From: an uncultured Candidatus Saccharibacteria bacterium
GTDB lineage: Bacteria; Patescibacteriota; CALEFQ01
DNA: 64,000 nucleotides
Direction of reading: 5' to 3'
Assembly: GCA_965230955.1 (NCBI GenBank)
Contig: OZ246404.1
Coordinates: 582,410-646,409 of the forward strand
Under the pieces are notes generated by a model. The model did no database searches, was not told the DNA's origin, and was given only the letters and a program-made list of their open reading frames with translations. A program made the translations under genes and the position numbers. Each line of letters starts with the position of its first letter. The stretch's first letter is position 1. Shown here one piece after another: positions 4,257 through 63,740 of this stretch.

Positions 4257-4262
4257 AGCACT

Positions 4263-6292: not shown

Positions 6293-6316
6293 TGATTGAT
6301 ATCGAAAATTATTTTC

Positions 6317-8353: not shown

Positions 8354-8371
8354 AATATTACTTTTGACTTT

Positions 8372-28973: not shown

Positions 28974-29858
28974 TCAGCGTAATTTTCGGCGCCTTTCCGC
29001 CGGAAAAACCTCACCGCGCCATCTCTTCAGCTCCTCCAAGTAATCTGAACTGGCACCGCGCGCTTCCGACAAAGAAAAAACTTCCGCCCAAGCCTTGTTT
29101 ATATATAAAAGCTCGGCCTCGCTTAAAACCCGGGCCTTTTCATTTTCCAAAAAAGACAACAACTCATTCGAGGCATCTGCGTTTGATTCTGGATTATTTT
29201 GGGGATGTATTTCTTGCCGCAGTTCATAATTTGTGGTAGCTCGGCGATATAGCTTAATCTTTTCAAATTGACCGGAACGTTCAATCGCCAAAATGCTATC
29301 CCCAAAAGACTGACTAGCCTCACGGTGCATATCCGGCTTGGTGAAACGCGCCACCCCGATCAATTTTTTTTGGAGTTCATATCTTAAAAAAATATCCGCC
29401 AAACTTACTTCAGGGGCTGTTAAAATAACATGGGCTGTCACGCCATATTCCTTTCGGTTCAGGAACGACGCTGTTCCGATTGGTACCTCTGGACGACGCA
29501 TTGTTCCTTCGATAATCATATCACCATGTTGCTCGGCAATTTTTTTGATGCAGCGCTCTACCCAAAAATTAACATCAGACTGAGTTAGATCGGCCGCATC
29601 TCTTTCATTACTCTCGAGAAATTGAGAATAAAATGGGTGATACCCTCTCAAATCGTCGGCATTAACCACCGAGGCCGGCCGGTCAGACAAAGTACTTTGC
29701 AACACCCTGATAAAATGACTCTTACCGGCGCCAGGCTGTCCTCCTAAAATATGAGCCTGGGGTTGATCTTGTCGAATTAGACCATATTCAAATCGGGGCC
29801 AAATTAAATCAGAAAATATTTCGTCTCTTTCTCGGACAGATAAAATATTTTTATCCAT
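28974..29858 (-). CDS. Zeta-toxin family P-loop kinase (PezT / zeta-like toxin)
   Basis: GGQPGAGKS Walker A near the N-terminus, about 290 aa, zeta-toxin topology. Confidence 0.7.
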   Translation of the reverse strand: MDKNILSVRERDEIFSDLIWPRFEYGLIRQDQPQAHILGGQPGAGKSHFIRVLQSTLSDRPASVVNADDLRGYHPFYSQFLESNERDAADLTQSDVNFWVERCIKKIAEQHGDMIIEGTMRRPEVPIGTASFLNRKEYGVTAHVILTAPEVSLADIFLRYELQKKLIGVARFTKPDMHREASQSFGDSILAIERSGQFEKIKLYRRATTNYELRQEIHPQNNPESNADASNELLSFLENEKARVLSEAELLYINKAWAEVFSLSEARGASSDYLEELKRWRGEVFPAERRRKLR

Positions 29859-44927: not shown

Positions 44928-46736
44928 TCACATTTTATCCGGAACGGGAATCGAAAGCAATTTTAGTGCGTTGGTCATGGTGATCAGAGTCGCTTTCAGT
45001 AGACCAACTCTGGCCGCTTGCAAAGCCGGCTCTGATCGAACCACCGAATGTTTGTGGTAAAAGGTGTTGACCAGCTTTGACAACCCGAGAACATAACGAG
45101 GAATCAGCGCGGTATCATAATGAGTAGCTGCTGTGATCACCGTATGGGGGAAATCCGCGATTGTCCGTAGAAGCGCTTTTTCTTCGCCCGAATCCAACTT
45201 TCCGTAATCCAAGACAGGATTAGAATCCTCGGTTGTGATTTTAGCTAGGATGCTTCCGATCCTGGTCACCGTATACTGAATATATGGCCCGGTATCACCT
45301 TGAAGATTGAGCGACTTGGCGGGATCAAACGTCATTCCGATTCGCGGAGTCACCAAGAGGATATAGAAATTGATTGCGCCAATAGCTACTTGATGCGCAA
45401 TCTGTTTTGCTTCCGCTTCTGGCAGGGACTCCTCTCTCTGACCGATCTTTTCCAGCACCATCTGCTCGATATCCTTCAGTAAGTCATCAGCGTCCACCAC
45501 CTTTCCTTCACGAGATTTCATCCGACCTTCCGGCAGTGATACCATCCCATAGGAAAAGTGATATAAGCCTTTGGCCCAGGGATAACCAAGCATTTCCATG
45601 ATTTTGAAAAGGCACTGGAAATGATGATTCTGCTCTTCCGCCACCACGTAAATCGATCGCGCCAGAGAAAATTCTTCCTGCTTAAGTACCGCGGTTCCGA
45701 TATCCTGGGTCGTGTAGAGAGCCGTACCATCGGCGCGCAACAAAGCCTTTTTGCCCAGATCTTTAAGATCAACCTGGACCGAGCCATCAGTGTCGTGAGT
45801 GAATATTCCGCGTTCGATTCCTTTGGCAACAATATCGCGTCCAAGACCGGAGGTCTTGGATTCATAGTACCATTTGTCAAACCCGACGCCATAAGCGAGG
45901 TAAGTTTCCCGAAAACCCGAAAGTACCCATTCGTTCATTTGCTGCCACAATTCCCGGACTGCTGGAACTCCTGCTTCCCATTGTCGCAACATCGTTCGCG
46001 CGGCAGTGCCGAATTCCGAATCAGGCAAGTTGAAAAATTTTTCTTTCTCTTTGCCCTCGGGAGGCTGTTTGGGATCAAACCCTTGTTGCTTGGCCCAGGA
46101 AATGTATTCCGCGTGAAAGTGTTTTTCGAACATGACGTAGTAATTGCCCACAAAATGATCACCTTTTTGGTTCTCACTTTGCGGAGTTTTACCGTCACCG
46201 AATTTCTGGTACGCTACCATGGACTTGCAGATATGGATACCGCGGTCGTTTACCAGGATCGCCGCCACGACATCAAACCCGGCGGCTCGCAGTAATTGGA
46301 TAAGAGACCAGCCCAAGGTGTTATTGCGGACGTGACCGAGATGCAGAGGCTTGTTGGTGTTCGGGGAGGAATATTCAACCATGACTCTCTCGCTCGTCTT
46401 TGATGCCTGCCCGTAGGCCGGGCCTTCTGACATGACCTGTTCGATCACCAGTTTGGCAAAAAAAGCCGAGTCCAAGGTAACATTGACGAAGGGGCCTGCA
46501 GCTTCCGCTGTGCCGACATAATCTTTGGCCGCTAGAAAACTAGCCAACGCTGTCGCTAATGACTTAGAATCGCGCTTGACCGGTTTGGCAAAACGGAAAC
46601 ACGGAATGGAAATATCGGCCGCGACGTGAGCGGGAGGTGCCTGTATTTCGACTGGCACATCAGCAGGAAGTTTTAGGGCATCATGGACATCAGCTCGAAC
46701 TTGATCGCGCAGTTTTTGGACGGTTGTTGTTTTCAT
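44928..46736 (-). CDS. argS: Arginine--tRNA ligase
   Basis: Class I HIGH (PNTNKPLHLGHVRN), KMSK-like motif, DALR anticodon-binding C-terminus; 602 aa. Confidence 0.9.
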   Translation of the reverse strand: MKTTTVQKLRDQVRADVHDALKLPADVPVEIQAPPAHVAADISIPCFRFAKPVKRDSKSLATALASFLAAKDYVGTAEAAGPFVNVTLDSAFFAKLVIEQVMSEGPAYGQASKTSERVMVEYSSPNTNKPLHLGHVRNNTLGWSLIQLLRAAGFDVVAAILVNDRGIHICKSMVAYQKFGDGKTPQSENQKGDHFVGNYYVMFEKHFHAEYISWAKQQGFDPKQPPEGKEKEKFFNLPDSEFGTAARTMLRQWEAGVPAVRELWQQMNEWVLSGFRETYLAYGVGFDKWYYESKTSGLGRDIVAKGIERGIFTHDTDGSVQVDLKDLGKKALLRADGTALYTTQDIGTAVLKQEEFSLARSIYVVAEEQNHHFQCLFKIMEMLGYPWAKGLYHFSYGMVSLPEGRMKSREGKVVDADDLLKDIEQMVLEKIGQREESLPEAEAKQIAHQVAIGAINFYILLVTPRIGMTFDPAKSLNLQGDTGPYIQYTVTRIGSILAKITTEDSNPVLDYGKLDSGEEKALLRTIADFPHTVITAATHYDTALIPRYVLGLSKLVNTFYHKHSVVRSEPALQAARVGLLKATLITMTNALKLLSIPVPDKM

Positions 46737-48001
46737 GGATTCTTCCCTTCAATAGAATTTCGCTGCCAAGGTTGGGTCATGCAGTGAAAACCGCCATGTC
46801 CCAGTAACAACTGGGGACACGGAACGGCCACCACATAGCGCTGTTTATCCCGGATTTCAAATGTCGGATCGATAAACCGATCCGCCTGGACAAACTCATA
46901 ACCTACCCGACAAAGCTCTTCTATCGTAGCATAATTGCAGTCTGGAATCAAGGTGAGCCCGGGTCGCAAAGTGAAAAGATTTGAACCTTCCCACCGCTGC
47001 TCGCGGTCTTGGATGAGACGATCATGGCCGCCACAGGATATCAGATTGTTGACAGGAACTTTGTAATGGTCGAACGCGGTCAGGAGACTGGGAAATTCCC
47101 CGATCTTCACCGATCCATTTTCTGACAAGGTCAACGCCAGCACCTTGACACCCACTTGCCCATTAGACGGCTCAATCAGCGGTTTGTAAACCACGAAGTC
47201 CCCATCATTGATCTGGGAGTAAATCGTATCGAGGTGCATACACATGCGATCGCGTGGCATGCTGACCGCCAGAATGTTTCTGATACCGAGGTCAAATAAG
47301 GAAGTGCGACACAAGGAGAGGATTGTTTCGAGTTTGGTCCGCTCGCTAACCCCGACCATCAACAGATCTTCACGCAGGGGGAAAACGTCTCCCCCTTCCA
47401 TGTTGTAAGGTTCCTGCGGCAGAATCAAATGATCCTTTGAAAGCGAATAAACGGGATGATATTGTAATATCGCTTTCATGACAATCGCTTCGCGCATTCG
47501 AGGCACTTTGGCGAAAAGAGACAAGAAAATCTTATCCCCTACTACCGCCGCCATGTCACGTGTAAACATGGAATTTGGAATAGGATTAGCGATGACCCGG
47601 CCATCCAGTTTGCCTGAGAAAACACAATTGACGAAGTCGGTAGTCGAAAGAGCTTCGGGATCACCCATCTCTTGGTGAATTCCGATATCGAGAGCCAAGA
47701 TCTTTTTGAGATGCGAACAAGCATCAATCGTTTCCCCAAAAAGTGCCTCTAAAAACAGAACTCCAGAGGGACCGGTCACTTTTTGCATGCAGGCGACCAA
47801 AACACCGAATTCTGATCTTGCCCGAGGGACATCGAGAATGTCGTCAAACAACAGCTGCTGAGCTTGTTCTGGTGAGACTGCTTCCAAGGCAGTCTCAGGA
47901 AAATTGACGACGACCTGGCGCAATAGCCCGTTCTCATTTCGTACACACAAATTTGACACACCAGCACCACATTGACGGTTGCTTTCGCTTATTTCCTGCA
48001 T
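46733..48001 (-). CDS. Arginine deiminase-family protein (amidinotransferase superfamily)
   Basis: C-terminal catalytic GHGGFHCMTQP motif and overall ADI length (422 aa). Confidence 0.7.
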   Translation of the reverse strand: MQEISESNRQCGAGVSNLCVRNENGLLRQVVVNFPETALEAVSPEQAQQLLFDDILDVPRARSEFGVLVACMQKVTGPSGVLFLEALFGETIDACSHLKKILALDIGIHQEMGDPEALSTTDFVNCVFSGKLDGRVIANPIPNSMFTRDMAAVVGDKIFLSLFAKVPRMREAIVMKAILQYHPVYSLSKDHLILPQEPYNMEGGDVFPLREDLLMVGVSERTKLETILSLCRTSLFDLGIRNILAVSMPRDRMCMHLDTIYSQINDGDFVVYKPLIEPSNGQVGVKVLALTLSENGSVKIGEFPSLLTAFDHYKVPVNNLISCGGHDRLIQDREQRWEGSNLFTLRPGLTLIPDCNYATIEELCRVGYEFVQADRFIDPTFEIRDKQRYVVAVPCPQLLLGHGGFHCMTQPWQRNSIEGKNP

Positions 48002-48120
48002 AAATACCTCCTATGGTTGCAGGGTTAATGTAAAGTTCCTACCACCCTACCAACTTTCTAAAAGGTTGTCAATCGAGGCAAACTGTGGTATTTTAAAGAA
48101 TACAATTCACTTGAAAACAT

Positions 48121-49218
48121 ATGCCAAAAATAAACCCGACCAAGGTCGCCTCAAAAATATATCGCGAAGTATTAGCCATACAAAGGAACGAAAGAGTCCT
48201 CATTGTCGCAGATTTTCGTCCCGCAAATTACCAAGTCGCAACTATTTTAGGAAAAACGATTTCCTCCCAGGGTAATCACTTTAATATTGTTTTTCAAAAA
48301 CCTCGAGCCAAAGGACAGCCCATGGACATGACTGTGTACTCCGCTCTATTACAAAAACCAAACGTCCTAATTTCCCTCGGCCGGATTGGCAATGATCCTT
48401 TTATGGGCAAGAAAGTATATCGACATAACGGACGCACCTTTGAAAATTATTTTTACTATTTAATTGATGGGGGCATTTCCCGCGGAGCCTATGGTTTTAC
48501 CGACACCGCTGAGGAATACTGGAATTTGATTGACCTTGATTATAGCAAAATGCATCGACTGGCCAATATTTTAAAAAAGCATTTAGATAAAGCTGAAGCC
48601 GTCATAATAAAAGATCCGCCCACCGGGACTGAATGTCATTTTGAAATTCGCCGTCATCGCGCCTGGCTAGATGATGCTTTTTATCATCAGCCGGGACACT
48701 CCGGCAACCTGCCGGCCGGAGAAGTTTTCATCACTCCCGATCGGCATACCGGAGAAGGAACTATCTTTGTGCGGGGCAGCGGCCAGCTAATAAAACTTAC
48801 TCGTCGGCTGGCAACCCCCATGAAACTACGCGTGAAAAATAATCTAGCCGTAGATTTCGTTGGTCCAACCGCCCATCAGTTAGAACGAGATCTCGCCGGG
48901 ATAGCCAATGATATGGTAAAGAAAACACGTACCGGGAAACTTTCGAAACAAAAAATGTCTGAATACCAGCACAATATTTACCATGTGGGCGAAATCGGTT
49001 TTGGTCTGAATCCCAAAGCCAGGATTGGCGGCAAAAATATGCTAATTGACGAAAAGACGTATGGCACGGTACACATTGCTCTCGGAGACGACTACGATGG
49101 AGATTCTCCGGCCCCGATTCATTTGGATCAGATGATCGGCTATCCGGAAGTATATCTGATAACCAACGGTAAAAGGCAGCTGATTTTGCGCAACAAGGAA
49201 TATTTATTCGACCTTTAA
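48121..49218 (+). CDS. Aminopeptidase, M29 (AmpS/PepS thermophilic metalloprotease) family
   Basis: Conserved Glu/His/Asp metal-binding positions of M29 (e.g. HVGEIGFG, HIALG), 365 aa. Confidence 0.65.
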   Translation: MPKINPTKVASKIYREVLAIQRNERVLIVADFRPANYQVATILGKTISSQGNHFNIVFQKPRAKGQPMDMTVYSALLQKPNVLISLGRIGNDPFMGKKVYRHNGRTFENYFYYLIDGGISRGAYGFTDTAEEYWNLIDLDYSKMHRLANILKKHLDKAEAVIIKDPPTGTECHFEIRRHRAWLDDAFYHQPGHSGNLPAGEVFITPDRHTGEGTIFVRGSGQLIKLTRRLATPMKLRVKNNLAVDFVGPTAHQLERDLAGIANDMVKKTRTGKLSKQKMSEYQHNIYHVGEIGFGLNPKARIGGKNMLIDEKTYGTVHIALGDDYDGDSPAPIHLDQMIGYPEVYLITNGKRQLILRNKEYLFDL

Positions 49219-49251
49219 ATTGGCGAGGATAATTTTTTCCGCCACTAGTCC

Positions 49252-49280
49252 TTGACACCGCAGTCAAGAATTGATAGAGT
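49252..49280 (+). promoter_or_regulatory. Putative promoter of the tRNA-Arg array, with a CTTGAC-N6-GTCAAG palindrome over the -35
   Basis: TTGACA - 17 nt - TAGAGT, 19 nt upstream of the first tRNA. Confidence 0.35.
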
Positions 49281-49299
49281 GCTCGGATCTTGTTTCTTC

Positions 49300-49373
49300 G
49301 CGCCTATAGCTCAATTGGATAGAGCACCGGACTACGAATCCGTCGGTCAGGGGTTCGAATCCCCTTAGGCGCA
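49300..49373 (+). tRNA. tRNA-Arg (anticodon ACG)
   Basis: Cloverleaf folded by hand: acceptor gcgccta/taggcgc, anticodon loop cuACGaa, T-loop ttcgaat; CCA not encoded. Confidence 0.85.
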
Positions 49374-49379
49374 TGAAGA

Positions 49380-49453
49380 GCGGCTATAGCTCAATTGGAT
49401 AGAGCGCTGGACTTCGAATCCAGAGGTCGGGAGTTCGATCCTCCCTAGCCGCA
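49380..49453 (+). tRNA. tRNA-Arg (anticodon TCG)
   Basis: Acceptor gcggcta/tagccgc, anticodon stem ctgga/tccag, loop cuUCGaa. Confidence 0.85.
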
Positions 49454-49461
49454 AACGGAGC

Positions 49462-49535
49462 GCACCTGTAGCTCAGTTGGATAGAGCAGTGGACTTCTAA
49501 TCCACCGGTCGCGGGTTCGAGCCCCGCCAGGTGCA
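49462..49535 (+). tRNA. tRNA-Arg (anticodon TCT)
   Basis: Acceptor gcacctg/caggtgc, anticodon stem gtgga/tccac, loop cuUCUaa. Confidence 0.85.
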
Positions 49536-49544
49536 TGCTACAAC

Positions 49545-49618
49545 GCGGCAGTAGCTCAGTTGGATAGAGTATCAGACTCCGAATCTGAAGGCCGGGGGTT
49601 CAAATCCCCTCTGCCGCA
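49545..49618 (+). tRNA. tRNA-Arg (anticodon CCG)
   Basis: Acceptor gcggcag/ctgccgc, anticodon stem tcaga/tctga, loop cuCCGaa. Confidence 0.85.
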
Positions 49619-49623
49619 TTATC

Positions 49624-49697
49624 GGGCCAGTAGCTCAGATGGATAGAGCACGGGACTCCTAATCCTGAGGCCACGGGTTCGAATCCCGTCTGGCTCA
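49624..49697 (+). tRNA. tRNA-Arg (anticodon CCT)
   Basis: Acceptor gggccag/ctggctc, anticodon stem cggga/tcctg, loop cuCCUaa. Confidence 0.85.
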
Positions 49698-49705
49698 TGC
49701 CTTAA

Positions 49706-49747
49706 CCGACAGACCTTGCAGAAATGCACTAGGCTGTCGGTTTTTTC
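49706..49747 (+). terminator. Rho-independent terminator of the tRNA-Arg array
   Basis: ccgacag ... ctgtcgg followed by tttttt. Confidence 0.55.
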
Positions 49748-49825
49748 TTGCAAAAAAAAACACCGGCCAATCGTCGATGTTTTTGATCAAATAGTCTCGC
49801 ACAGCAAATCAAGGATCTGGGATTA

Positions 49826-51214
49826 TCACCATCCGAACTGACGCCCCACGTCTTCAGAAGTTTCACGCCTACGGGCAACCGTAAGAATTCCGTTTTGGGC
49901 AATAATTTTTGCTGGCGAGGACAACAAGCAATGATGTGAACTCAAGGCATCTTGATAAGCCCCAGTATCTAAAATACCGAGATATTGTTCAGGCATTTCT
50001 TTATCCGCCGCTGGGCTAATTACCGGTAAAGACAAATAGCCATTACCTGTGTATTTATCATCAGAATCACACGAAGAACCGGCCAGCCAAACACGCGCCA
50101 ATGATTGGCTAGTCAAATTATTGACCGGCACAACCTGCCATTTCTGTTGAACCGCCCAAGTATCACACAAGTCATTCATAAAACTACCGTCCAGAACATA
50201 CCATTTACGAGCTACCGCTTTCTCAATATCTTTTTGGTGTATGACTTTAAAAACTGAGATCTGCGCCGGTGCCACCAAATGTCTCCCCCACTCGACAATA
50301 ATATCTGGGGATACCTGATACTTGGATTGAAAGGTAGCCAACACCTCAACAATACCACGCACCGTTCGATCAATTGAATAAGATTTATTTTTTTCGTAAG
50401 TAACAGGAAATCCGCCCCCCATATCAATTGCATTCAGACCGGGATTGAGTTTTTTTAGAAAAACAAAAACCTTCATAGCTTCACGTAATAATTTGACCAG
50501 ATCATCCGGATTTTCTACCTGTGATCCGATATGATAATGAAGCAATTTCAGATTCTTGATGTGTCCTATTTTCTTAATTTCGTCCGTTGACATACCAAAT
50601 CGATTCACTTTCTTATCCCAATGAGACTGAACTTTTACATCAATATCTATTCTGACCCCGACATCCGCATTTACACGCCATTTATGACTGTTAAAATACT
50701 CCAACTCGTCAGTATCTTCGATGACTGGAATTACTTTTAGCCCTCTAGTCTTAAGATCGGTAATTAGCCCTAAATACTGATTCGTTTTAGGGCCGTTACA
50801 TATGATCTTAATTCTATCATTGAATCTATCCTGTTCCCACAGTTTTTTAACCAGCCAAAGTTCGTTAGCTGAACTCACTTCCAAATTACCATCCTCACTA
50901 ATGACCGGCAGAACATATTCTTTGTTCTGATTGACTTTCATTGGATAATGATAAAAAAACTTTCCCTTATAGTGAAAGTTTTTTATGTGCCGCGAAAAAG
51001 AATCAATCAAAAAATTTAGACGTTGTTCAATCACAAAAGGAAACACGATTTCCAACGGCGTTCCAAATTTCTTGATAATATCAGGAAGATTATACTGATA
51101 ATTCCCTTCGTTAACTACCAATTCTCCTTCCTTGTTTATATCATAAAAATCGGTGTCGAGTTCTTTTTTGCCCAGCTTCCAAATCTTTTTATAATCAGGA
51201 TTATGATTGCCCAT
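49826..51214 (-). CDS. PLP-dependent decarboxylase of the Orn/DAP/Arg fold-III family, SpeA-like biosynthetic arginine decarboxylase
   Basis: LLHYHIGSQ, YPMKVNQ, ICNGPK, MGGGFPVTY and SSCDSDD align with the SpeA motifs HFHLGSQ, YPIKVNQ, VCNGYK, VGGGLGVDY and TCDSDG; 462 aa; AT-rich codon usage. Confidence 0.65.
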   Translation of the reverse strand: MGNHNPDYKKIWKLGKKELDTDFYDINKEGELVVNEGNYQYNLPDIIKKFGTPLEIVFPFVIEQRLNFLIDSFSRHIKNFHYKGKFFYHYPMKVNQNKEYVLPVISEDGNLEVSSANELWLVKKLWEQDRFNDRIKIICNGPKTNQYLGLITDLKTRGLKVIPVIEDTDELEYFNSHKWRVNADVGVRIDIDVKVQSHWDKKVNRFGMSTDEIKKIGHIKNLKLLHYHIGSQVENPDDLVKLLREAMKVFVFLKKLNPGLNAIDMGGGFPVTYEKNKSYSIDRTVRGIVEVLATFQSKYQVSPDIIVEWGRHLVAPAQISVFKVIHQKDIEKAVARKWYVLDGSFMNDLCDTWAVQQKWQVVPVNNLTSQSLARVWLAGSSCDSDDKYTGNGYLSLPVISPAADKEMPEQYLGILDTGAYQDALSSHHCLLSSPAKIIAQNGILTVARRRETSEDVGRQFGW

Positions 51215-51313: not shown

Positions 51314-52114
51314 CTAGAAAACCTTTCTTGTGTTTAACCAATTCAAACCATCCCGGACGGCCTTTTGAGCAGTGGCGGTATCGTGCCCGCCGCGTTGGTA
51401 AAATTTCCACTCAAACTGACCTTTCGGAAGCTTTCTCGATATTAATCTCCCGTAGCGTAAAGACTTAGTGAAACTAACGCACCGGTCTTGTTTTCCATGG
51501 CCAATAAACATTTTTGCCCGAGATAAATACCCAATATTTGACATCGGCGATAAATCGTCAAGATTTTCCAAATGACGCTTCCACTGAGATTTCAAGATAC
51601 CCCGATACAGATGAGAATACCCGTCTTCTTTCATACTTTCCAAAAAGCGCTTATTTGTTTCTTCTCCAGGAACACTACCACACGAACCACTATCAACCAC
51701 CGGGAAAATCAAAATTAATTCCTTAATCAATGGATTGAAACGAGGCAAAAGAGGGATATAGGTACCCCCGAAACTCCGGCCGACAAAAACCACTCGTTGG
51801 TATTTAAAACGGCGCTTGTCATTAAGTAAGGCATTCTTCCCAACACAACCATTGGTAAAATACTTATACAAATCCAGGAAGGTCTTAATACAGTTTTTGG
51901 GGGTGAAAACCCCATCACTGCGTCCGTAACCAAGATAATCAGGCACAAATAAGTCAAAGCCCGCTTGATTGATTATATCGGCTCCTGGCAGTGTTCCGTT
52001 ATCTGGCGGCAGAGGTGCGCCAATTCCATATACAACAACCTGCTTAACGGGATGACTACAAGGATAGTACATGCCAGCAATTTTTTTGAATTTATATAGT
52101 TGACTTCTGGCCAT
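51314..52114 (-). CDS. Alpha/beta-hydrolase-fold protein
   Basis: GRSFGG nucleophile elbow (GxSxG) plus a downstream His; start called at MARSQLYKF. Confidence 0.5.
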   Translation of the reverse strand: MARSQLYKFKKIAGMYYPCSHPVKQVVVYGIGAPLPPDNGTLPGADIINQAGFDLFVPDYLGYGRSDGVFTPKNCIKTFLDLYKYFTNGCVGKNALLNDKRRFKYQRVVFVGRSFGGTYIPLLPRFNPLIKELILIFPVVDSGSCGSVPGEETNKRFLESMKEDGYSHLYRGILKSQWKRHLENLDDLSPMSNIGYLSRAKMFIGHGKQDRCVSFTKSLRYGRLISRKLPKGQFEWKFYQRGGHDTATAQKAVRDGLNWLNTRKVF

Positions 52115-52174
52115 TTTTGAAATGTTTAAATAGGGCCGGGGGAAACTTACTGTTTCTCCCAGCCCCAAACTACC

Positions 52175-52978
52175 TCAGATTCCGATTTCAATTGTCGGGG
52201 TAGCTGCCTGCCAACTGTGCAGGTCAAAGCGAGCAACTTCGAATAAAGGGCTACGCTTACGTTCGATGTTCACCATCAAGGTTCCCAATTTCGAAAGTGC
52301 CTGATCCGGTGCCAAGTAACTATACAGACACCCAACCGTCAGCGATTCCCCGAAACTATTTACCAATTCAGGAATCAAGGCAAGATTCTTGCGCGTGAAT
52401 GACAGATTAGAAATTTGGAGTTTCCGCTTAGCCCATTCGATAACTCGTTTCTCCAATGGAAATCCTGTCAAATCATCTGGGCAAGGTTCTTTTGTTGAAA
52501 TTGTCAGGTCGCATTTTACCGACAGCTCACGGTACGTAGAATACCTGAACTGTATTCGGTCGTACAGTTGTCGCACTTCCTCAACGGCTTGCGAATAGAT
52601 CAGAGAGTGCCGATCAAGAATCCTAGATATTTCACCGTTTTCGGCATCTGTCGATATAACTCCCAGGTCGGCAAACACCACTGCCACCGAAACATTGATG
52701 TTGGTACAGTATTCAGTAACAACATCCAGCAGGCGCCTTACGGCAAGCCATTTACCGCTCACCCTGCTCCCTTCGATACTTGTGGCCTCCGCCAGCAAGC
52801 GCGACTCATTGATTGGCCCTTCTTGGTACAGGGGACAGACCGGAATCACAAAATGTAATCCGTGCCGAGGAATCAACATATCCCAATTCTGGCAATGGAT
52901 ATCCATATCCCGATCTTTTCCCCTGATACTACGAAGTTTCTTCTCGAAACTACTTCGAAATTCGCTATCAGGTACCAT
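52175..52978 (-). CDS. Hypothetical protein; start MVPDSEF preceded by a GGGAGGGGAAA Shine-Dalgarno sequence
   Basis: About 267 aa, no recognisable motif; co-oriented with the decarboxylase and hydrolase in the AT-rich block. Confidence 0.35.
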   Translation of the reverse strand: MVPDSEFRSSFEKKLRSIRGKDRDMDIHCQNWDMLIPRHGLHFVIPVCPLYQEGPINESRLLAEATSIEGSRVSGKWLAVRRLLDVVTEYCTNINVSVAVVFADLGVISTDAENGEISRILDRHSLIYSQAVEEVRQLYDRIQFRYSTYRELSVKCDLTISTKEPCPDDLTGFPLEKRVIEWAKRKLQISNLSFTRKNLALIPELVNSFGESLTVGCLYSYLAPDQALSKLGTLMVNIERKRSPLFEVARFDLHSWQAATPTIEIGI

Positions 52979-53128
52979 TTTCCCCTCCCTTCTGAAAGAC
53001 AAAAACAGAAAATAGATGATTTCAATTTTAGCAATAACCGCAAAAAAGTCAAGCGGAAAACAAAAGCCTGTAATTCACCACTACACTTTTTATTCCCCCC
53101 CCCTATATCCCCTGTTACCCTAAAAGTC

Positions 53129-53160
53129 AAAAACCGCCCGCCGAGTCGGCGGGCGGTTTT
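53129..53160. terminator. Bidirectional rho-independent terminator
   Basis: aaaaaccgcccgcc gagt cggcgggcggtttt. Confidence 0.5.
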
Positions 53161-53214: not shown

Positions 53215-53289
53215 TGGCTGGGGAGATAGGATTCGAACCTATGTATGGCGCCTCCAGAGGGCGCTGCCTTACCGCTTGGCTACTCCCCA
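53215..53289 (-). tRNA. tRNA-Gln (anticodon CTG), CCA encoded
   Basis: Minus-strand cloverleaf: acceptor tggggag/ctcccca (U1-A72), anticodon stem gcgcc/ggcgc, loop cuCUGga, T-arm atagg ttcgaat cctat, then g + cca. Confidence 0.75.
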
Positions 53290-53292
53290 ATA

Positions 53293-53367
53293 AAGTCAAA
53301 AGTCAAAAATCAAAAGTAAAAAGTTGGAATATCGAACTTTAGACTTTTGACTTTTGACTTTTTACTT
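53293..53367. repeat. Palindromic tandem-heptamer element, GTCAAAAG variant (tRNA-Gln / ftsX junction)
   Basis: aagtcaaaagtcaaaaatcaaaagtaaaaag ... ctttagacttttgacttttgactttttactt. Confidence 0.75.
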
Positions 53368-55170: not shown

Positions 55171-56278
55171 TTAGGCATTTTTACGGCCAACTTGCCATTT
55201 CAAGAAGCTTTCCACAAAACCTGTCAATTCTCCGCCCAAAACACGATCAGGCGCCTTTTCCTCATATTCAGTCCGGTGATCTTTTACCATTTTATACGGG
55301 TGAAGGACGTACGAGCGAATCTGGTTTCCCCAACCCGCTGAAACATGCTGTCCGCGCGCTTTCAAGCGTTCCTCTTCCGCCTGGCGCTGTTGCAAGGCCA
55401 GTATCTTGGCTTGCAAAATTTTCAGCGCGGTCTCTTTGTTTTGATACTGAGAACGTTCGGTCTGACACTCCACCACCAATTTAGACGGAATATGGGTCAG
55501 ACGCACTGCGGAACTTGTTTTGTTTACTTTTTGACCACCGGCACCGGAAGAACGAAAGGTATCCACGCGCAAATCCTCGGGATCAACGGCAATTTCTTTG
55601 GGATCCTCGATTTCCGGAATAACTTCCACCAGGGCAAATGAAGTTTGGCGCAGAGCATCGGAATTGAACGGCGATTGTCGTACCAGCCGGTGGACGCCGC
55701 CCTCCGACTGTAACATCCCGTAAGCGTAGCGTCCGATCACTCGAAAGGTCGAGCTCTTGATCCCGGCTTCTTCACCTCGGCTTTCGGCAACCATTTCAAC
55801 ATTGAATTCTTTTTTTTCGCAGTAGCGTAAAATCATTCGGCGCAACATCTCGGCCCAATCCTGGGCGTCAACTCCGCCCGCTCCGGCATGAATAGAAACG
55901 ATCGCATTACGTTCGTCGTATTGACCGCTCAGCAGAACTTGGAATTCATGTTTTTCAAAAAGAGTCGCCAGGTCTTTGGCTTTCTGGCGTAATTCCGGAT
56001 AAATCGCTTCCGCTCGTTCCTTTTCCGCCTCACGCGACATCTCCAGCGCTTCCCGCGTCTCGCGCTCCAGGCCTTCCCATAATTCCACTTGCTGTTTGAG
56101 CGATCCCAGCCGCTGCATTATTTCTCTGGCGCGCTGATTATTTTTCCAAAACTCCGGCTCTTCACTCAGAGCCGTCAGTTGGATTATTTTTTGTTTTTTA
56201 CCCGAGATGTCAAAGAGAGTCCAATGTCTTTTGGATTCGCTGAATCAAATCTTCGAGACGGGTAATGGTTTCTTTCAT
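55171..56278 (-). CDS. prfB: Peptide chain release factor 2 with programmed +1 frameshift (frame 0 MKETITRLEDLIQRIQKTLDSL-UGA, then +1 from L-D-I-S-G-K...)
   Basis: GGQ motif (SSGAGGQKVNKTSSAVRLTHIP) in the long ORF. Upstream short ORF ends at the canonical CUU UGA C shift site (plus-strand gtcaaag at 56209..56215). Confidence 0.85.
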
Positions 56279-58064: not shown

Positions 58065-58180
58065 GTAATATCAAATCACAAATAACCAATATCAAATAAA
58101 TGATCAAGTCTCAATTACAAATGTTTATAATTGGAGCTTGAATTTTATTGGATATTGGTTATTTGTTATTGGATATTACT
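58065..58180. repeat. Palindromic tandem-repeat element, ATATCAAAT/CACAAAT variant
   Basis: agtaatatcaaatcacaaataaccaatatcaaataa ... ttattggatattggttatttgttattggatattact; arms are near-perfect reverse complements. Confidence 0.65.
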
Positions 58181-59057
58181 TCAGCAGTTTTACAATCTCA
58201 CTCGGCAACTCCGCCACTTTTACTCCCGCCGCCTCGAGCGCCTCTTGCTTGGATTGCGCCGTGCCCGCTTTGCCGGAAACGATCGCGCCGGCGTGCCCCA
58301 TGGTCTTGCCCGGCGGCGCCGTCCGTCCGGCAATATAGGCCACCACCGGTTTGGTCACGTGATCTTTGATATATTCGGCCGCGGCTTCTTCCAAATTGCC
58401 GCCGATCTCGCCGATCAAAACAATCTTATCCGTCTCCGGATCTTTTTCAAACAATTCCAAAACATCGATATAATTACTGCCAACAATCGGATCGCCGCCG
58501 ATCCCGACACAAGTACTTTGACCAATCTTGTTTTTCGACAAATGATTAACGATTTCGTAAGTCAGCGTCCCGGATTTGGAAACAACACCGACCCGCCCGT
58601 GCTGAAAAATCTTGGCCGGCATAATTCCAGCCTTGGCTTCGCCCGGCGTGATCACTCCCGGACAATTCGGCCCGATAACGTGCAAGCCTTTTTCGCGCGC
58701 GAAATTCACAATCGCCAGTGCGTCATGGACCGGCACATGCTCGGTAATGATTATCAGATTCAAACCCGCCGCCAGATCTTCTAAGGCCGATTTCTTCACA
58801 AACGGCGCCGGGACAAAATGTATCGCCCAATTTTTATCGGTTGTGCGGGCGGCCGGCTGGCCGCCCCTACCGGACAACGCTTCGGAGATCGTGTTAAATA
58901 CCGGCACCCCTTCGATTGTCTGTCCCCCTTTCTTCGGAGTGACCCCGGCCACGATATTCGTCCCGTATTCCAGCATCATTTTGGTATGAAAAGAACCTTG
59001 ACCGCCGGTAATCCCACGAACGATGAAACGAGAGTTTTTGTTGATTAGGATTGACAT
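58176..59057 (-). CDS. sucD: Succinate--CoA ligase subunit alpha
   Basis: CoA-binding Rossmann N-terminus, phosphohistidine loop MGHAGAI; 293 aa. Confidence 0.9.
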   Translation of the reverse strand: MSILINKNSRFIVRGITGGQGSFHTKMMLEYGTNIVAGVTPKKGGQTIEGVPVFNTISEALSGRGGQPAARTTDKNWAIHFVPAPFVKKSALEDLAAGLNLIIITEHVPVHDALAIVNFAREKGLHVIGPNCPGVITPGEAKAGIMPAKIFQHGRVGVVSKSGTLTYEIVNHLSKNKIGQSTCVGIGGDPIVGSNYIDVLELFEKDPETDKIVLIGEIGGNLEEAAAEYIKDHVTKPVVAYIAGRTAPPGKTMGHAGAIVSGKAGTAQSKQEALEAAGVKVAELPSEIVKLLK

Positions 59058-59173
59058 GGAATAATTCAGAATTCAAAATGAAAAAGGCAAAATCATTGTA
59101 ATTATACTTATTCCTGCTATTATGTACAGACGCTTTGGAGGCATAATCATATTCACGAAAGGAGGATAAAATC

Positions 59174-59617
59174 GTGAACGCAAAGCATTGGGGATTCTAT
59201 TTGACATTCAAAATTTTGGCATTGGCTTTAGCCGCGGTTTTTGTGACCGGATGGATCGGCAACGCGACGCCCCAAACAATCATATCACATGGGGTTATCG
59301 CTGTATCCCTGAACACTATCGGTGCAGTTTTTGTCGTCGCCCTCACTATATTTGCCGCGTTGTTGGACTATTATTGCACTTGGCTACTATTGGATTGGCA
59401 TCGGCCAAAAGAATGGTACGGCGGGAGTAACTTTTTCTTGCCTCTTTGTGCTATTGGCCCGCTCCTCGGATTACTGGTTACTGTCATCATGGGTCGAATC
59501 CAAACATACGAACATTTATGGCTCTACCTGATCATCGTCAGTTGTTCTCTACCCACCATGATCATCCCAACAATTATCCTGCTTCGTTCACCCGAACCAC
59601 CGAAGTTTCCGAGTTAA
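59174..59617 (+). CDS. Hypothetical membrane protein
   Basis: Four TM segments. Confidence 0.3.
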   Translation: MNAKHWGFYLTFKILALALAAVFVTGWIGNATPQTIISHGVIAVSLNTIGAVFVVALTIFAALLDYYCTWLLLDWHRPKEWYGGSNFFLPLCAIGPLLGLLVTVIMGRIQTYEHLWLYLIIVSCSLPTMIIPTIILLRSPEPPKFPS

Positions 59618-59795
59618 GCCCCTACCACTATTCCCCGACCTGCTGCCGACAGCAGGTTTTTTCTTTATCCGCGCAGGCGCCATCTATCACTCAGGACATA
59701 ATACCTTAATTTCTATTGACGAAGCTAGACTGGATAGTTAGAATGCAACGATAGTCACAAATCATTCAACTGTTTTCATGAAAAGGAGGATGATC

Positions 59796-60392
59796 ATGAC
59801 AACAATTGCAAGAAGAGCTCTATTAAGCGTGTGGGACAAGACAGATATCGTGATGTTCGCACAAGGATTAAACCAACGCGGGTTCGAAATCATCTCGACT
59901 GGTGGCACAGCGAAGGTGTTAACCGATGCCGGAATTTCTGTCACCACTGTCGAACAAGTAACCAGTTTCCCGGAATGCTTCGGCGGAAGATTAAAGACTC
60001 TTCATCCCAGAATAATGGGCGGCATACTGCGACGACGCGACAACATCACAGACAATGAATCAGCTATTTTGCTGGGCATTGCCGATATCGACCTGGTGGT
60101 TGTCAACTTATACCCCTTCCAAACGGTCACGAGCCAGCCAGACTGCACATTCGAGGAAGCGATTGAAAATATCGACATCGGCGGTCCAAGTATGATCCGA
60201 GCAGCCGCCAAGAATCATGAGTCCGTGGTAGTTGTGGTTGATCCGCGCGATTATCGCAAAATTTTGCGGGAACTTGCGCCAGGTTATACCTGGATCAGTC
60301 CGCAACTGAAATTCCAGTTGGCAGTAAAAGTTTTTAAACTTACTGCTAAATACGACCGGGCAATCTATAATTACTTAAAAAACAGATATTAG
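59796..60392 (+). CDS. IMP cyclohydrolase domain protein (PurH N-terminal MGS-like domain only)
   Basis: Near-collinear match to PurH residues 1-200 (SVSDKTG..., LSTGGTA, KTLHP, GGIL, NLYPF, DIGGPSMIRAAAKNH). ORF stops where the AICAR transformylase domain would begin; AGGAGG Shine-Dalgarno sequence 6 nt upstream. Confidence 0.7.
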   Translation: MTTIARRALLSVWDKTDIVMFAQGLNQRGFEIISTGGTAKVLTDAGISVTTVEQVTSFPECFGGRLKTLHPRIMGGILRRRDNITDNESAILLGIADIDLVVVNLYPFQTVTSQPDCTFEEAIENIDIGGPSMIRAAAKNHESVVVVVDPRDYRKILRELAPGYTWISPQLKFQLAVKVFKLTAKYDRAIYNYLKNRY

Positions 60393-60424
60393 ACAAAATC
60401 GTCAACGTGACTATCATATCGATC

Positions 60425-60459
60425 CAGCCTATCCATTAGAGATAGGCTGTTTCTTTTTT
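60425..60459. terminator. Rho-independent terminator
   Basis: cagcctatc cattaga gataggctg then tttctttttt. Confidence 0.5.
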
Positions 60460-60647
60460 CGGCAACAGAGCAAATAGATAATGGGCAAAATGCCGGCCGT
60501 ATTCAGAATCAAAATCAGGACAAACCAGACCGGCTGATTGTTTCGTCCGGCGCGCCAGAGGCCAAAGCCCTTCCAGACCATTTCCCAGATCATTAAGGGA
60601 ATTAGCCAGATTAGCCATGGGCTTAAATCGATGGTTTCGAGAATCAT
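60429..60647 (-). CDS. Small membrane protein
   Basis: 72 aa, two TM segments. Confidence 0.25.
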   Translation of the reverse strand: MILETIDLSPWLIWLIPLMIWEMVWKGFGLWRAGRNNQPVWFVLILILNTAGILPIIYLLCCRKKKQPISNG

Positions 60648-60760
60648 AAAGTTTCACTAATTAATCTCATTGTAATCATTCTTATTGACAGTTGTTTTTT
60701 TTCGTGAAAGAATGGCAACAGAGAAACAAATCAATGTCATTTCCAGATAGGAGGGACGAT

Positions 60761-61147
60761 ATGAATGACATAACAAAGTTATGGATTAGAATTGGCAGTA
60801 GCGATCTTGCCGCCGCGATCTGTGTGTTAATAATCCTGGGGACATTCGATGCCAAGTCGACAGAGGTAATCAAGACTTTTATAGCTATCCTGGCTTTAGT
60901 CGGCTGGTTTTTTACCACCATGATTCACTCCTGTTGTATCGCGAATCTCGTTTATCCAGGCAAGACTGGAGATAAAAAGTTTTTCTTAGGGGCCCCTGTA
61001 ATTTTGATTGGGACGTTGATAATAACAGTATCCGGATCTCTTCAGTACAATTGCGCCGCTTCCTTTCCCTATCTATTTTCCCTAGGCATAGCCGCCAAAA
61101 TCATGTGGTATCACTGGCTAACTTTCTATCCAAAACCACAAGAATGA
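60761..61147 (+). CDS. Hypothetical membrane protein
   Basis: Four TM segments; AGGAGGGA Shine-Dalgarno sequence upstream of MNDITK. Confidence 0.3.
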   Translation: MNDITKLWIRIGSSDLAAAICVLIILGTFDAKSTEVIKTFIAILALVGWFFTTMIHSCCIANLVYPGKTGDKKFFLGAPVILIGTLIITVSGSLQYNCAASFPYLFSLGIAAKIMWYHWLTFYPKPQE

Positions 61148-61167
61148 ATGGTTATGATTCGACTCTC

Positions 61168-61199
61168 AAACCTGTTGGCACGACGCTAACAGGTTTTTT
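61168..61199. terminator. Bidirectional terminator between convergent genes
   Basis: aaacctgtt ggcacgacgcta aacaggtttttt. Confidence 0.45.
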
Positions 61200-61232
61200 A
61201 TTTGGAAAACACTTACCTGCACCAATAAATTA

Positions 61233-62336
61233 TTAATTCCGGATTGCCACAATCTCCCGCGCCGCTTTTTCCATTTCGTCTTCAAACTTTATTCCCGCCT
61301 TCAGCAAAATCGCCTTCGCTTCTTTTTCTCTAGTGCCGACCACGCGCAAGACAACGGGAATACTTAAACCTTTTTCTTTCACGAAATCAACCAGCCCCTG
61401 CGCGATCTCGTCCGCCCGTGTGATTCCGCCGAATATATTGATAAAAATCTTTTTCACCCCCGGCTTTTTGAGCGCGATCGTCAGCGCTTTTTTCATTTGC
61501 TCGGACGTCGCTCCGCCGCCGACATCAAGAAAATTCGCCACTCGGCCGCCGAAGTGCGCCAGCGTGTCCAGCGTCGCCATCACCAGCCCGGCGCCATTGC
61601 CAATCACCGCGATATCGCCGTCAAGCTCGACATAAGACATACTTTCCACGTTCGCCTCTTTTTCCAACGCGGTATAATCGTCCGTTTTATACTTCGCCAG
61701 TTCGGGATGACGAAAAAGCGCGTTGTCATCGATAACCACTTTCGCATCCAGCGCCATCAATTCGCCTGATTTTAACCGTACCAGTGGATTGATCTCAACC
61801 AAGGTCCCATCTTTTTCCACAAACAAGCGATACAGTTTTTGGATGATATCAATCACTTCGGCGGAAATACCGACTTGAGATTTTATATTTTGAATTTCCT
61901 TTGAATTTTGGATTTTAAATTTTTTGATTTTATCGGGGTTCTCCGCCGCAATCGTTTCCACATCAACACTTCCCTCTTCACAAAAAACGACCATCGGACA
62001 TTTGGCTACTCGATCAATCGTGATAGACAAATACATCTCAGCGCTCACGTCGAGAAAGCCGTAAATCAGGATTTCCTCGACCTTGAGCCCGCTAATCGTC
62101 ATATCAAAAATGCGTGCCACTTCACGCTCCACAATCTCTGGTTTGTTATCGACAAAAACTATACCGCCAGCCTTCTTGCGCTTGCCTTTAGCCACCTGCG
62201 CCTTGATCGAAACTTTGGGCCCCATTTTGTATACTTCCGCCGGTACAGCTTCGCCTTTTCTAATTAAAACGCCGCCGGGAGTACGGATCCCGTATTGCTC
62301 GAAAATTTCTTTGCCTTGGTATTCTTTTAAATTCAT
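61233..62336 (-). CDS. sucC: Succinate--CoA ligase (ADP-forming) subunit beta
   Basis: ATP-grasp N-terminus MNLKEYQGKEIF..., CoA-ligase C-terminal domain; 367 aa. Confidence 0.9.
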   Translation of the reverse strand: MNLKEYQGKEIFEQYGIRTPGGVLIRKGEAVPAEVYKMGPKVSIKAQVAKGKRKKAGGIVFVDNKPEIVEREVARIFDMTISGLKVEEILIYGFLDVSAEMYLSITIDRVAKCPMVVFCEEGSVDVETIAAENPDKIKKFKIQNSKEIQNIKSQVGISAEVIDIIQKLYRLFVEKDGTLVEINPLVRLKSGELMALDAKVVIDDNALFRHPELAKYKTDDYTALEKEANVESMSYVELDGDIAVIGNGAGLVMATLDTLAHFGGRVANFLDVGGGATSEQMKKALTIALKKPGVKKIFINIFGGITRADEIAQGLVDFVKEKGLSIPVVLRVVGTREKEAKAILLKAGIKFEDEMEKAAREIVAIRN

Positions 62337-62344
62337 AAATTAAG

Positions 62345-62426
62345 TATCAGGTAACAATTAACAAGTAACAAATAAGAAAATTCCCTTCCAATTTGTCACT
62401 TGTTACCTGTTACTTGATACCTGATA
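62345..62426. repeat. Palindromic tandem-heptamer element, GTAACAA variant; overlaps the last codons of the 62403..62966 gene
   Basis: tatcaggtaacaattaacaagtaacaa ... ttgtcacttgttacctgttacttgatacctgata. Confidence 0.65.
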
Positions 62427-62966
62427 TCCCGTTTCCACCGCCTTTACATTATCATCCGGTAATTTTTTCGGAATCGCCCGGCGCAAATTTACTTTCGATA
62501 AATCAATCTCCAGGTAAGCCAAGAGAGAACCCAGCGCGATTGTGCTGCCATAAATCGGCTTGCCGAATTTTTCTCGCCCCAGGCCAAAAAAATCATGAAC
62601 ATCGCCGTCGGTCCGCACTCCTTTTTGGGCAATGATATTGCGCCCGGTGAATTTCTTGCCGGTCACCCCAAGTTCGAGCAGAAAATCAGCTTGATCGACG
62701 ACTGGATTTACCACCTTTTTTTTATCAAACGCGATATAAGCCACACTGGCTCCGCCGCGCGAGGCCGCGTCGTAATCATTAAGGACGGTAACGTCAACAT
62801 CGAGCTGCATTAAAATCTCGCCCAAAATCGCCGCCAGCATTTTGACGCCTTGTCCGCCCGTCCCGGCCACAATAATTTTCGCGTGGTTTAACATATCCTT
62901 AATTTCCGGGCGAGCGCCCTCCTTCGCTAAAGCTACGGAGGATGAACCGCTCGCCCCTACTAACAT
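62403..62966 (-). CDS. 2-oxoacid:ferredoxin oxidoreductase gamma subunit
   Basis: IIVAGTGGQGV nucleotide-binding-like motif and size (187 aa) typical of PorG/KorC. Confidence 0.75.
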   Translation of the reverse strand: MLVGASGSSSVALAKEGARPEIKDMLNHAKIIVAGTGGQGVKMLAAILGEILMQLDVDVTVLNDYDAASRGGASVAYIAFDKKKVVNPVVDQADFLLELGVTGKKFTGRNIIAQKGVRTDGDVHDFFGLGREKFGKPIYGSTIALGSLLAYLEIDLSKVNLRRAIPKKLPDDNVKAVETGYQVSSNR

Positions 62967-62995
62967 CTCTTAATATCTTAATATTCTTAATATCT
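62967..62995. repeat. One-armed tandem heptamer run (TCTTAAT x4) directly upstream of the 62403..62966 start codon
   Basis: ctcttaatatcttaatattcttaatatct; no inverted partner nearby. Confidence 0.5.
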
Positions 62996-62999
62996 TTTT

Positions 63000-63740
63000 T
63001 TAATCTTTTTTCACAATCCCAATCTCGCCATCCGCTAACAAACCAACAGGTTTCGGATTTATTTTGAACTGCTCCTTGTACGCCAGAATCATCTCCGCCG
63101 GACTTTTTACTTTGTTCATCTTACCCCAGCGCTCGGGACAATCGGATTTGATATCAACCAGCGCGAAACCCGGCCAAGCCAGCGCTTCGGCCAAACATTT
63201 TTTCAGATGCGGCACATGAAAAACAGTCGAACGAGCGTAAAAATACCGGCGATTGGAAGTGATTATTCCCTGAATATTTATCGGATTGGCTTCCGATCCT
63301 TGAGGAGTGGTAAGAGTGACGCTCCCCGGCCGTGTCGTCGGCGCACTTTGTCCGCCGGTCATACCGTATATTTCATTATTAACCAGAACGACTGTAACAT
63401 TGGCATCGCGCCGGCTGGTGTGGAGCAAATGATTTCCGCCGATACTGGTCAAATCGCCGTCACCGGAAGCCACGACAACTTTTAAGTCCGGCCGATAGGC
63501 CGCGATTGCTTCCGCCACTGGCAGAGCCCGCCCGTGCGTGGTATGAAGAGAATCCATCTTGAAATATCCCGCCATCCGTCCGGTACAGCCGATCCCGGAA
63601 ACCACGGTGGCATTTTTGCTATTTAATCCCGCCGCCGCCATGACACCCGCCAGCTGGTGAAAAATAATACCAATGCCACAACCGGCACACCATAGTGTCG
63701 GCATTCGTTCTTGTTTAATTAAGTCTTTAGCTTCGGCCAT
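63000..63740 (-). CDS. 2-oxoacid (2-oxoglutarate/pyruvate-type):ferredoxin oxidoreductase beta subunit, TPP-binding
   Basis: WCAGCGIG Cys motif and GDGD TPP-binding motif. Confidence 0.85.
   Translation of the reverse strand: MAEAKDLIKQERMPTLWCAGCGIGIIFHQLAGVMAAAGLNSKNATVVSGIGCTGRMAGYFKMDSLHTTHGRALPVAEAIAAYRPDLKVVVASGDGDLTSIGGNHLLHTSRRDANVTVVLVNNEIYGMTGGQSAPTTRPGSVTLTTPQGSEANPINIQGIITSNRRYFYARSTVFHVPHLKKCLAEALAWPGFALVDIKSDCPERWGKMNKVKSPAEMILAYKEQFKINPKPVGLLADGEIGIVKKD

Follow-up and report, generated by a model that had tools for sequence, protein, structure and literature searches.

Why would a bacterium line up one tRNA gene for each of five arginine anticodons, close to the gene for the synthetase that charges their products? 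The question is raised by a stretch of 64,000 nt (hereafter, the window) from an uncultured Candidatus Saccharibacteria bacterium (contig OZ246404.1, positions 582,410 to 646,409). Here, an array of five tRNA-Arg genes lies near argS, an arginine deiminase (ADI)-family gene, and an arginine decarboxylase (ADC)-like gene. An earlier note on this DNA grouped them as one arginine-centred locus and proposed that a palindrome over the array promoter could be an operator. We conclude that the array is probably a single housekeeping tRNA operon with the full Arg-decoding set of a reduced Patescibacteria genome, and that it stands in a lineage-specific arginine neighbourhood without demonstrated common control.

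Five intact tRNA-Arg genes, one per anticodon

ARAGORN finds six tRNA genes in the window, five of which make up the array on the plus strand (49300-49697): tRNA-Arg (ACG) at 49300-49373, tRNA-Arg (TCG) at 49380-49453, tRNA-Arg (TCT) at 49462-49535, tRNA-Arg (CCG) at 49545-49618, and tRNA-Arg (CCT) at 49624-49697. These are the anticodons that the earlier note had read from the sequence, and the Rfam tRNA model also finds all five genes, with respective scores of 70.3, 75, 73, 73.4, and 69.9 bits (array members 70-75 bits, gathering score 29). Each anticodon is present in one copy, no other tRNA lies within the array, and the spacers measure 5-9 nt. The sole further tRNA in the window is a tRNA-Gln (CTG) at 53215-53289.

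Placed on the cloverleaf, the five sequences have 99% of cells paired, with compensatory changes in 11 of the 21 pairs, and their pairwise identity is 69-84%. Together, this identity and pairing show that these are five old, distinct, and intact genes, neither recent copies nor pseudogenes. The anticodon-arm core, G-A-CU-NNN-AA-U-C, is identical in all of them. By our own arithmetic, which takes ~45 single-copy tRNA genes in random order, the chance of the five named tRNAs being consecutive is ~3e-5.

The set does cover the six arginine codons, as had been claimed, and every one of the six is used in the window. Arginine accounts for 759 of 15,304 codons over 47 window open reading frames (ORFs), split into CGT (18%), CGC (30%), CGA (14%), CGG (24.5%), AGA (8%), and AGG (5%). 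Under standard wobble, ACG (as ICG) would decode CGU/C/A, UCG would decode CGA/G, and CCG would decode CGG; the AGA/G pair would fall to UCU, and AGG also to CCU.

Sequence inspection agrees with the earlier note that no CCA is encoded after any of the five genes. The window tRNA-Gln does encode CCA, as do seven of eight tRNAs of related Patescibacteria loci (L161, L162, and L180). The lone CCA-less tRNA among those eight is also a tRNA-Arg (TCG, in L180).

The array as a predicted transcription unit

A sigma-70-type promoter is predicted on the plus strand at 49252-49280 (TTGACA, 17 nt, and an extended -10 element TG-n-TAGAGT; 10/12 consensus positions plus the TG), and its 3' end lies 19 nt upstream of the first tRNA. 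On the other side of the array, RNA folding predicts an intrinsic terminator at 49704-49750 on the plus strand, in which the hairpin AACCGACAG...CTGTCGGTT is followed by the T-run TTTTTCTT. The hairpin folds at -22.8 kcal/mol (z = -4.5), and none of 200 shuffles was equally stable. No promoter- or terminator-like sites were found inside 49300-49697. Altogether, the single strand, the short spacers, and the flanking promoter and terminator signals are those of a polycistronic tRNA operon, and the array looks like one self-contained operon whose five genes would be co-transcribed.

In the mechanism that we propose, transcription from the sigma-70-type promoter would yield one precursor of ~450 nt ending at the intrinsic terminator, and RNase P and 3'-end nucleases would presumably cut this precursor into five tRNAs. 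Because no CCA is encoded in the array, CCA would be added post-transcriptionally. With a single promoter for the whole array, the supply of all Arg decoders would be set jointly. We further assume that these are the only tRNA-Arg genes of the genome; the screening behind this assumption covered the 64-kb window.

Rarity of the array

We scanned one genome per species, 185,579 species in all, for three successive occurrences of the array's anticodon-arm pattern, GACTHCKAAT. The scan gave 86 matches, nearly all by chance, and the real arrays among them were homo-ACG only (L053, L064, and L096). The pattern is narrow and tied to this lineage's A31-U39 arm, and it says little about arrays in general. 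A second scan covered 241 million metagenome contigs with D-loop and anticodon-loop blocks and required an exact TGGATAGAG, which limits its sensitivity; for example, it would miss the CCT member of L179, whose D-arm is GGATAGAAC. It returned 64 loci, of which three hold true hetero-isoacceptor Arg arrays. L113 has ACG, CCT, CCG, and TCT, and L114 and L126 have Pro, Arg-TCT, Arg-CCT, Arg-TCG, and Lys. Most of the 64 are not arrays but a single tRNA-Arg preceded by two truncated 5' copies.

No colinear five-Arg array was found in the viral scans or by blastn against phages and plasmids; adjacent Arg isoacceptors do occur inside large mixed phage tRNA clusters. Within the limited sensitivity of exact-pattern scans, a pure, complete, non-redundant five-member Arg operon is rare. 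The earlier note's view of the arrangement as unusual thus holds, with homo-ACG arrays and three hetero-arrays as the yield of the scans.

The loci with truncated copies form a pattern of their own. In L097 (1002-1228) and ~50 other loci (L097-L160), a tRNA-Arg, mostly CCT or CCG, follows two truncated 5'-half copies that consist of the D-arm and anticodon arm. These copies may be scars of repeated integration or excision at the tRNA gene.

Genes around the array

The argS gene (44928-46736, minus strand) encodes an arginine--tRNA ligase of 602 aa with the Pfam domains Arg_tRNA_synt_N, tRNA-synt_1d, and DALR_1. It scores 393 bits against TIGR00456, where the equivalog cut-off is 262, and its nearest homologues are from Patescibacteria (52-56% identity). 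It is the second gene of a pair. The first, at 46733-48001 on the minus strand, encodes the ADI-family enzyme (422 aa; Pfam ADI, PF02274, 4.8e-46), and its stop codon overlaps the argS start (ATGA). This overlap suggests that the two genes are probably co-transcribed and translationally coupled.

The ADI-family protein matches the arginine deiminases 4bof, 1lxy, and 1rxx in the PDB at 1e-31 to 1e-24. Aligned with seven homologues, it conserves the FTRD, EGGD, MHLDT, and GG-HCMT motifs, and the catalytic Cys-His-Asp/Glu residues are in place. R168 and R221 are also invariant in this alignment and may match the substrate-carboxylate-binding arginines of known ADIs. The protein scores below the arcA equivalog cut-offs (204 vs. 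489 bits for TIGR01078; 202 vs. 414 for NF002381). Among 5.8 billion clusters, no homologue exceeds 34% identity, and the best one is from the Rhodothermales/Balneolaceae/Bacteroidota. We also considered agmatine deiminase and rejected this identity, as the protein belongs to PF02274 and not to PAD_porph. Neither arcB (ornithine carbamoyltransferase, OTC) nor arcC (carbamate kinase) was found among the scanned ORFs of the 64-kb window.

A 119-bp divergent intergenic region (48002-48120) separates the ADI-argS pair from the next gene and has predicted promoter-like sites on both strands, TTGTCA-17-TATTTT on the plus strand (48066-48094) and TTTTCA-16-TAAAAT on the minus strand (48117-48090). 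The gene beyond it (48121-49218, plus strand) is divergent from the ADI-family gene, precedes the array on the strand that they share, and encodes a 365-aa M29 aminopeptidase/NicX-fold metalloenzyme. The protein scores 33 bits against Pfam Peptidase_M29 (cut-off 27), and its family profile matches NicX (7cn3) in the PDB at 8.7e-16, as well as AmpS/PepS/AmpT. Its AlphaFold2 model has a pLDDT of 97, and Foldseek gives TM scores of 0.69-0.75 to NicX and 0.6-0.69 to PepS/AmpT. The predicted fold and the family profile thus both place it in the M29/NicX superfamily. Its best homologue among 1.8 billion representatives is 35% identical. The ADI-family and M29/NicX-fold genes (46733-49218) are in this sense a divergent orphan pair, with no homologue above 35% identity and with active-site motifs or folds that are apparently intact.

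On the other side of the array and convergent with it, at 49826-51214 on the minus strand, is a SpeA-like ADC (462 aa; Pfam Orn_Arg_deC_N, 1.2e-25) that depends on pyridoxal phosphate (PLP). It is the last of three same-strand genes (52175-53002, 51314-52168, and then 49826-51214), which we read as one probable transcription unit. Its best NCBIfam and PDB matches are SpeA (3n2o, 3nzq, and 3nzp), as for a fold-type-III PLP decarboxylase. It falls below the SpeA equivalog cut-offs (217 vs. 369 for NF003763; 208 vs. 624 for TIGR01273) and does not have the full-length architecture of ~630 aa, being a member of a SpeA-like family, 450-470 aa long, that occurs widely among Patescibacteria and anammox bacteria. 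Its 1,398 homologues are mostly from Patescibacteria (55-67% identity).

The neighbours of its orthologues are informative about its substrate. One orthologue (L007) adjoins an agmatine deiminase (PAD_porph) and a CN_hydrolase (N-carbamoylputrescine amidase), and another (L009) adjoins an Arginase-family agmatinase; this link to agmatine enzymes is seen in the orthologue loci and is absent in the window itself. Agmatine-using enzymes beside the orthologues support arginine decarboxylase as the likely activity of the 462-aa protein. LysA was also considered for this protein and rejected, given 146 vs. a cut-off of 298 for TIGR01048 and orthologues that keep company with agmatine enzymes. The earlier note's identities for argS, the ADI-family gene, and the ADC-like neighbour therefore all stand.

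Elsewhere in the window, we observed a polyamine/methionine-salvage set comprising a fused MFS/spermidine synthase (17944-19440), MtnA (23478-24596), and a nucleoside phosphorylase (25064-25810). These genes are consistent with polyamine synthesis and fit the ADC.

One arginine locus or separate units?

Going by orientation and the ATGA overlap, the genes fall into four transcription units: ADI-argS (minus), the M29-like gene (plus), the array (plus), and the unit ending in ADC (minus). With its genes in four units on both strands, a single functional arginine-centred locus, as claimed in the earlier note, is unsupported. The layout is also not conserved in relatives. ADC relatives with 59-67% identity (L004, L007, and L009) have mur cluster-HPF-ADC-agmatine deiminase/agmatinase-SecA contexts, with no tRNAs within 10 kb of ADC. 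Among ArgS relatives with 52-56% identity (L161-L164), argS stands in a leuS-argS-trmB context or in another one, and none of them has a tRNA-Arg within 10 kb of argS. In L180 (ArgS 46% identical), a single Arg-TCG stands beside Lys-CTT, 4.8 kb from argS.

An NCBI contig of 1,136,458 bp carries the exact decarboxylase and ArgS proteins, and most homologues with a named source are from Patescibacteria. Around the locus are the chromosomal genes ftsX, ftsE, prfB, succinyl-CoA ligase, oxoacid:ferredoxin oxidoreductase, HypD/HypE, and ATP synthase subunit a, and no integrase or phage genes were found there. These ordinary neighbours and the lack of such genes around the locus suggest that it is not a mobile element. 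Most likely, the neighbourhood is specific to this lineage and arose by rearrangement, maybe with an acquired orphan pair of ADI-family and M29-like genes, and is not a conserved co-regulated module.

Searches for regulation point the same way. ARG box matches at three mismatches were at chance level (30 vs. 22 +/- 6 expected), with none at the predicted promoter hexamers or in the 119-bp intergenic region, and no ArgR was found among the scanned window ORFs, so an ArgR regulon is not indicated. The Rfam search gave no T-box or other cis-regulatory RNA: the gathering score was reached by tRNAs alone, nothing else was credible at E <= 1, and no element lies in the leader of the argS pair, where the intergenic region is only 119 bp. 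A repeat search across 44.6-53.4 kb found no motif common to the promoter regions. The only regulator found in the window is of the Rrf2 family (17336-17914), ~30 kb from the locus, and none adjoins the locus. We infer that common regulation of the array and its arginine neighbours is absent, and we hold with reasonable, though far from complete, confidence that the array is a housekeeping operon in a lineage-specific neighbourhood.

Several observations weigh against this conclusion. First, four arginine-related items lie in 6.3 kb of a ~1.1 Mb contig, for which we estimate a chance of roughly 1e-3 to 1e-5, by our own arithmetic and before allowing for the earlier reader's search over many windows. 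Second, the relatives that we reached are distant, and closer ones might carry the same layout. Third, a sole tRNA-Arg set is an assumption for anything beyond the 64-kb window. Finally, there are parallels in an unrelated low-GC lineage. L113 (Ga0066639_10015578) has a four-member array with argS 198 nt further on the same strand; the array has its own terminator and argS its own promoter-like site, and the ArgS is 40% identical to that of the window. In L179 (SRR8797411), Arg ACG, CCT, and CCG keep the L113 order immediately ahead of argS, and a TTGACA-17-TAGGAT promoter and a terminator separate the array from argS. In L178, a relative of that lineage, argA, argG, and argB and a pyruvoyl-dependent arginine decarboxylase lie directly upstream of argS (205-6787), with no tRNAs, and its ArgS is 54% identical to that of L113. 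This clustering hints at recurrent selection for such neighbourhoods.

These parallels are the best case for a selected arginine module, in which auxotrophic, host-dependent bacteria would gain from keeping Arg tRNAs, ArgS, and arginine-consuming enzymes together, as an adaptive and convergent arrangement. Such bacteria could profit through shared dosage, through a common local domain of transcription, or through an arginine-responsive regulator that escaped detection. The theme does recur independently: the L113 and L179 arrays are each followed by argS, yet the two ArgS are just 49% identical, and in L178 a non-homologous decarboxylase is found in like company. Furthermore, L126 has an ornithine carbamoyltransferase gene 2.2 kb from its Pro-Arg-Arg-Arg-Lys cluster, and the Brevibacterium argS-lysA cluster, which is regulated by arginine (Oguiza 1993, as cited in PMC7923171), shows that argS can be wired to amino-acid status. 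However, this genome's nearest relatives do not keep the layout, the units are separate and on both strands, the searches above gave no shared motif, ARG box, or riboswitch, no regulator gene adjoins, and the few supporting cases came to notice only post hoc. We consider a selected module unlikely.

The L113/L179-type loci differ from the window in having CCA on most tRNAs, ~38% GC (measured for L113), and another anticodon order, and they are therefore independent of the window array. Some link, be it selective or mechanistic, may thus tie tRNA-Arg genes to argS. The cases are few and post hoc, yet tRNA-Arg arrays, argS, and arginine enzymes may have been drawn together repeatedly. The broader proposition, that complete single-copy tRNA-Arg operons beside argS, often with arginine enzymes, are recurrent and convergent in uncultured bacteria and selected to couple Arg decoding to arginine availability, strikes us as decidedly doubtful. 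We also observed that argS of L179, behind its tRNA-Arg array, stands among argA-like and proB-like kinase genes and an AdoMet decarboxylase gene (1731-7231).

A further alternative is an acquired island, in which the orphan ADI-family and M29-like genes, and perhaps the CCA-less array, entered together beside a resident argS. The ADI-family and M29-like proteins have no homologue above 35%, and the ADI-family protein has its best relatives in Bacteroidota and Rhodothermota, not in Patescibacteria. The five Arg tRNAs also lack CCA, in contrast to the window tRNA-Gln and most tRNAs of related loci, and share the identical anticodon-arm core GA-CU-NNN-AA-UC. Set against this are the lack of flanking integrase, direct repeats, or other mobile-element genes, the unremarkable GC content across 44-50 kb, the probable translational coupling of ADI to a vertically inherited argS, and the absence of a colinear array from the phage, plasmid, and viral collections searched. 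Altogether, acquisition as an island appears very unlikely.

The palindrome highlighted by the earlier note, CTTGAC-ACCGCA-GTCAAG (CTTGAC-N6-GTCAAG; 49251-49268), covers the -35 hexamer TTGACA at 49252-49257. With 26 perfect 6-N6-6 inverted repeats in the window, the palindrome is not beyond chance; no second copy was found in the window, even with mismatches allowed. Beyond the window, the other copies are solely on 100% identical contigs of 6-8 kb (Logan L001-L003) and hence are uninformative on conservation. That a dimeric regulator binds this site and tunes tRNA-Arg supply is extremely improbable: the perfect 6+6 palindrome does sit exactly over the -35 hexamer, and only 4 of 195 TTGAC sites in the window (~2%) have a GTCAA partner within 12 nt, but one half is merely the -35 consensus, the site is a single, statistically unremarkable copy, and no regulator gene is nearby.

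As for the housekeeping operon in a lineage-specific neighbourhood, the array layout near argS is real, tidy, and rare, and it is mechanistically ordinary unless a recurrent argS link is confirmed genome-wide. If the layout is only lineage-specific, it is a neat case of a reduced genome that packs an isoacceptor family under one promoter, and it matters little beyond that. Should the link prove general, it would be a rare instance in which tRNA genes share a functional gene neighbourhood with the synthetase and the metabolism of their amino acid, and it would give a handle on how host-dependent auxotrophs match decoding capacity to amino-acid supply. In either case, two very divergent enzymes in the locus, the ADI-family and M29/NicX-fold proteins, are open to characterisation.

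Other features of the window

Several features outside the locus deserve a brief description. On the minus strand, a 36-nt AT-rich inverted repeat of (A)AAGTCAAA units (53292-53367) takes up the entire interval from the ftsX stop codon to the 5' end of tRNA-Gln (CTG). The tRNA-Gln has no obvious promoter of its own, and the hairpin may be a processing site that parts the tRNA from the ftsEX mRNA. Just past tRNA-Gln is a perfect 15-nt palindrome, AAAACCGCCCGCCGA / TCGGCGGGCGGTTTT (53130-53160), which looks like a bidirectional intrinsic terminator. In prfB, the gene for RF2 (55171-56278, minus strand), 22 codons precede a classical site of programmed +1 frameshifting, CTT TGA C (near 56209-56215), and for this reason the listed ORF begins 30 positions inside the PCRF domain.

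The window also encodes a HypE-like protein and HypD, succinyl-CoA ligase alpha and beta subunits, a 2-oxoacid:ferredoxin oxidoreductase, and a zeta toxin (6317-9418, 58176-63740, and 28974-29858). On a ~1.1-Mb contig, this gene set is a richer metabolic repertoire than we would expect for Patescibacteria.

Comparison with known systems

By the definition of Tran et al. (2016, PMC4758250), a tRNA array unit has 20 or more tRNA genes, spaced at 2 or more per kb. The array described here has 5, and the whole 64-kb window has 6, which places the array outside this definition. In the large mixed arrays of phages and Firmicutes (PMC4758250), isoacceptors are often adjacent, as in a jumbo-phage contig with Arg TCT, TCT, ACG, ACG, and TCG (L172). 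Those arrays, however, have at least 20 genes for many amino acids and are redundant, whereas the window set is a five-gene, single-amino-acid, non-repeated, chromosomal one.

The arginine deiminase system generally also includes arcB and arcC. The window differs in having a very divergent ADI-family gene alone, with no OTC or carbamate kinase found in the 64 kb. It resembles the arginine deiminase system in Saccharibacteria (Tian et al. 2022, PMC8764695) in that a member of the Patescibacteria has an ADI-family enzyme. An argS-lysA cluster regulated by arginine is known from Brevibacterium/Corynebacterium (Oguiza et al. 1993, as cited in PMC7923171). That cluster is like the window in linking argS to a fold-type-III PLP decarboxylase of the Orn/DAP/Arg family. 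Its two genes adjoin and are expressed together as a cluster, with LysA as the decarboxylase; in contrast, the window ADC is ~3 kb from argS, across two units, and convergent with the array.

The serV-argVYZQ genes of E. coli are an ordinary polycistronic tRNA operon. Like the window array, this operon and the homo-ACG arrays from our genome scan (L053, L064, and L096) place several tRNA-Arg genes one after another, closely spaced on a single strand, between one promoter and one terminator. They repeat one anticodon (ACG) for dosage, whereas the window array has one copy of each of five anticodons and no other tRNA. The L113 and L179 array-argS loci are like the window in having different Arg isoacceptors (3-4 vs. 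five) in a stand-alone unit with its own promoter and terminator next to argS. They differ in their order (ACG, CCT, CCG, TCT), in having no TCG, in encoding CCA, and in lying directly upstream of argS on the same strand, and their ArgS proteins are ~40-45% identical to the window ArgS.

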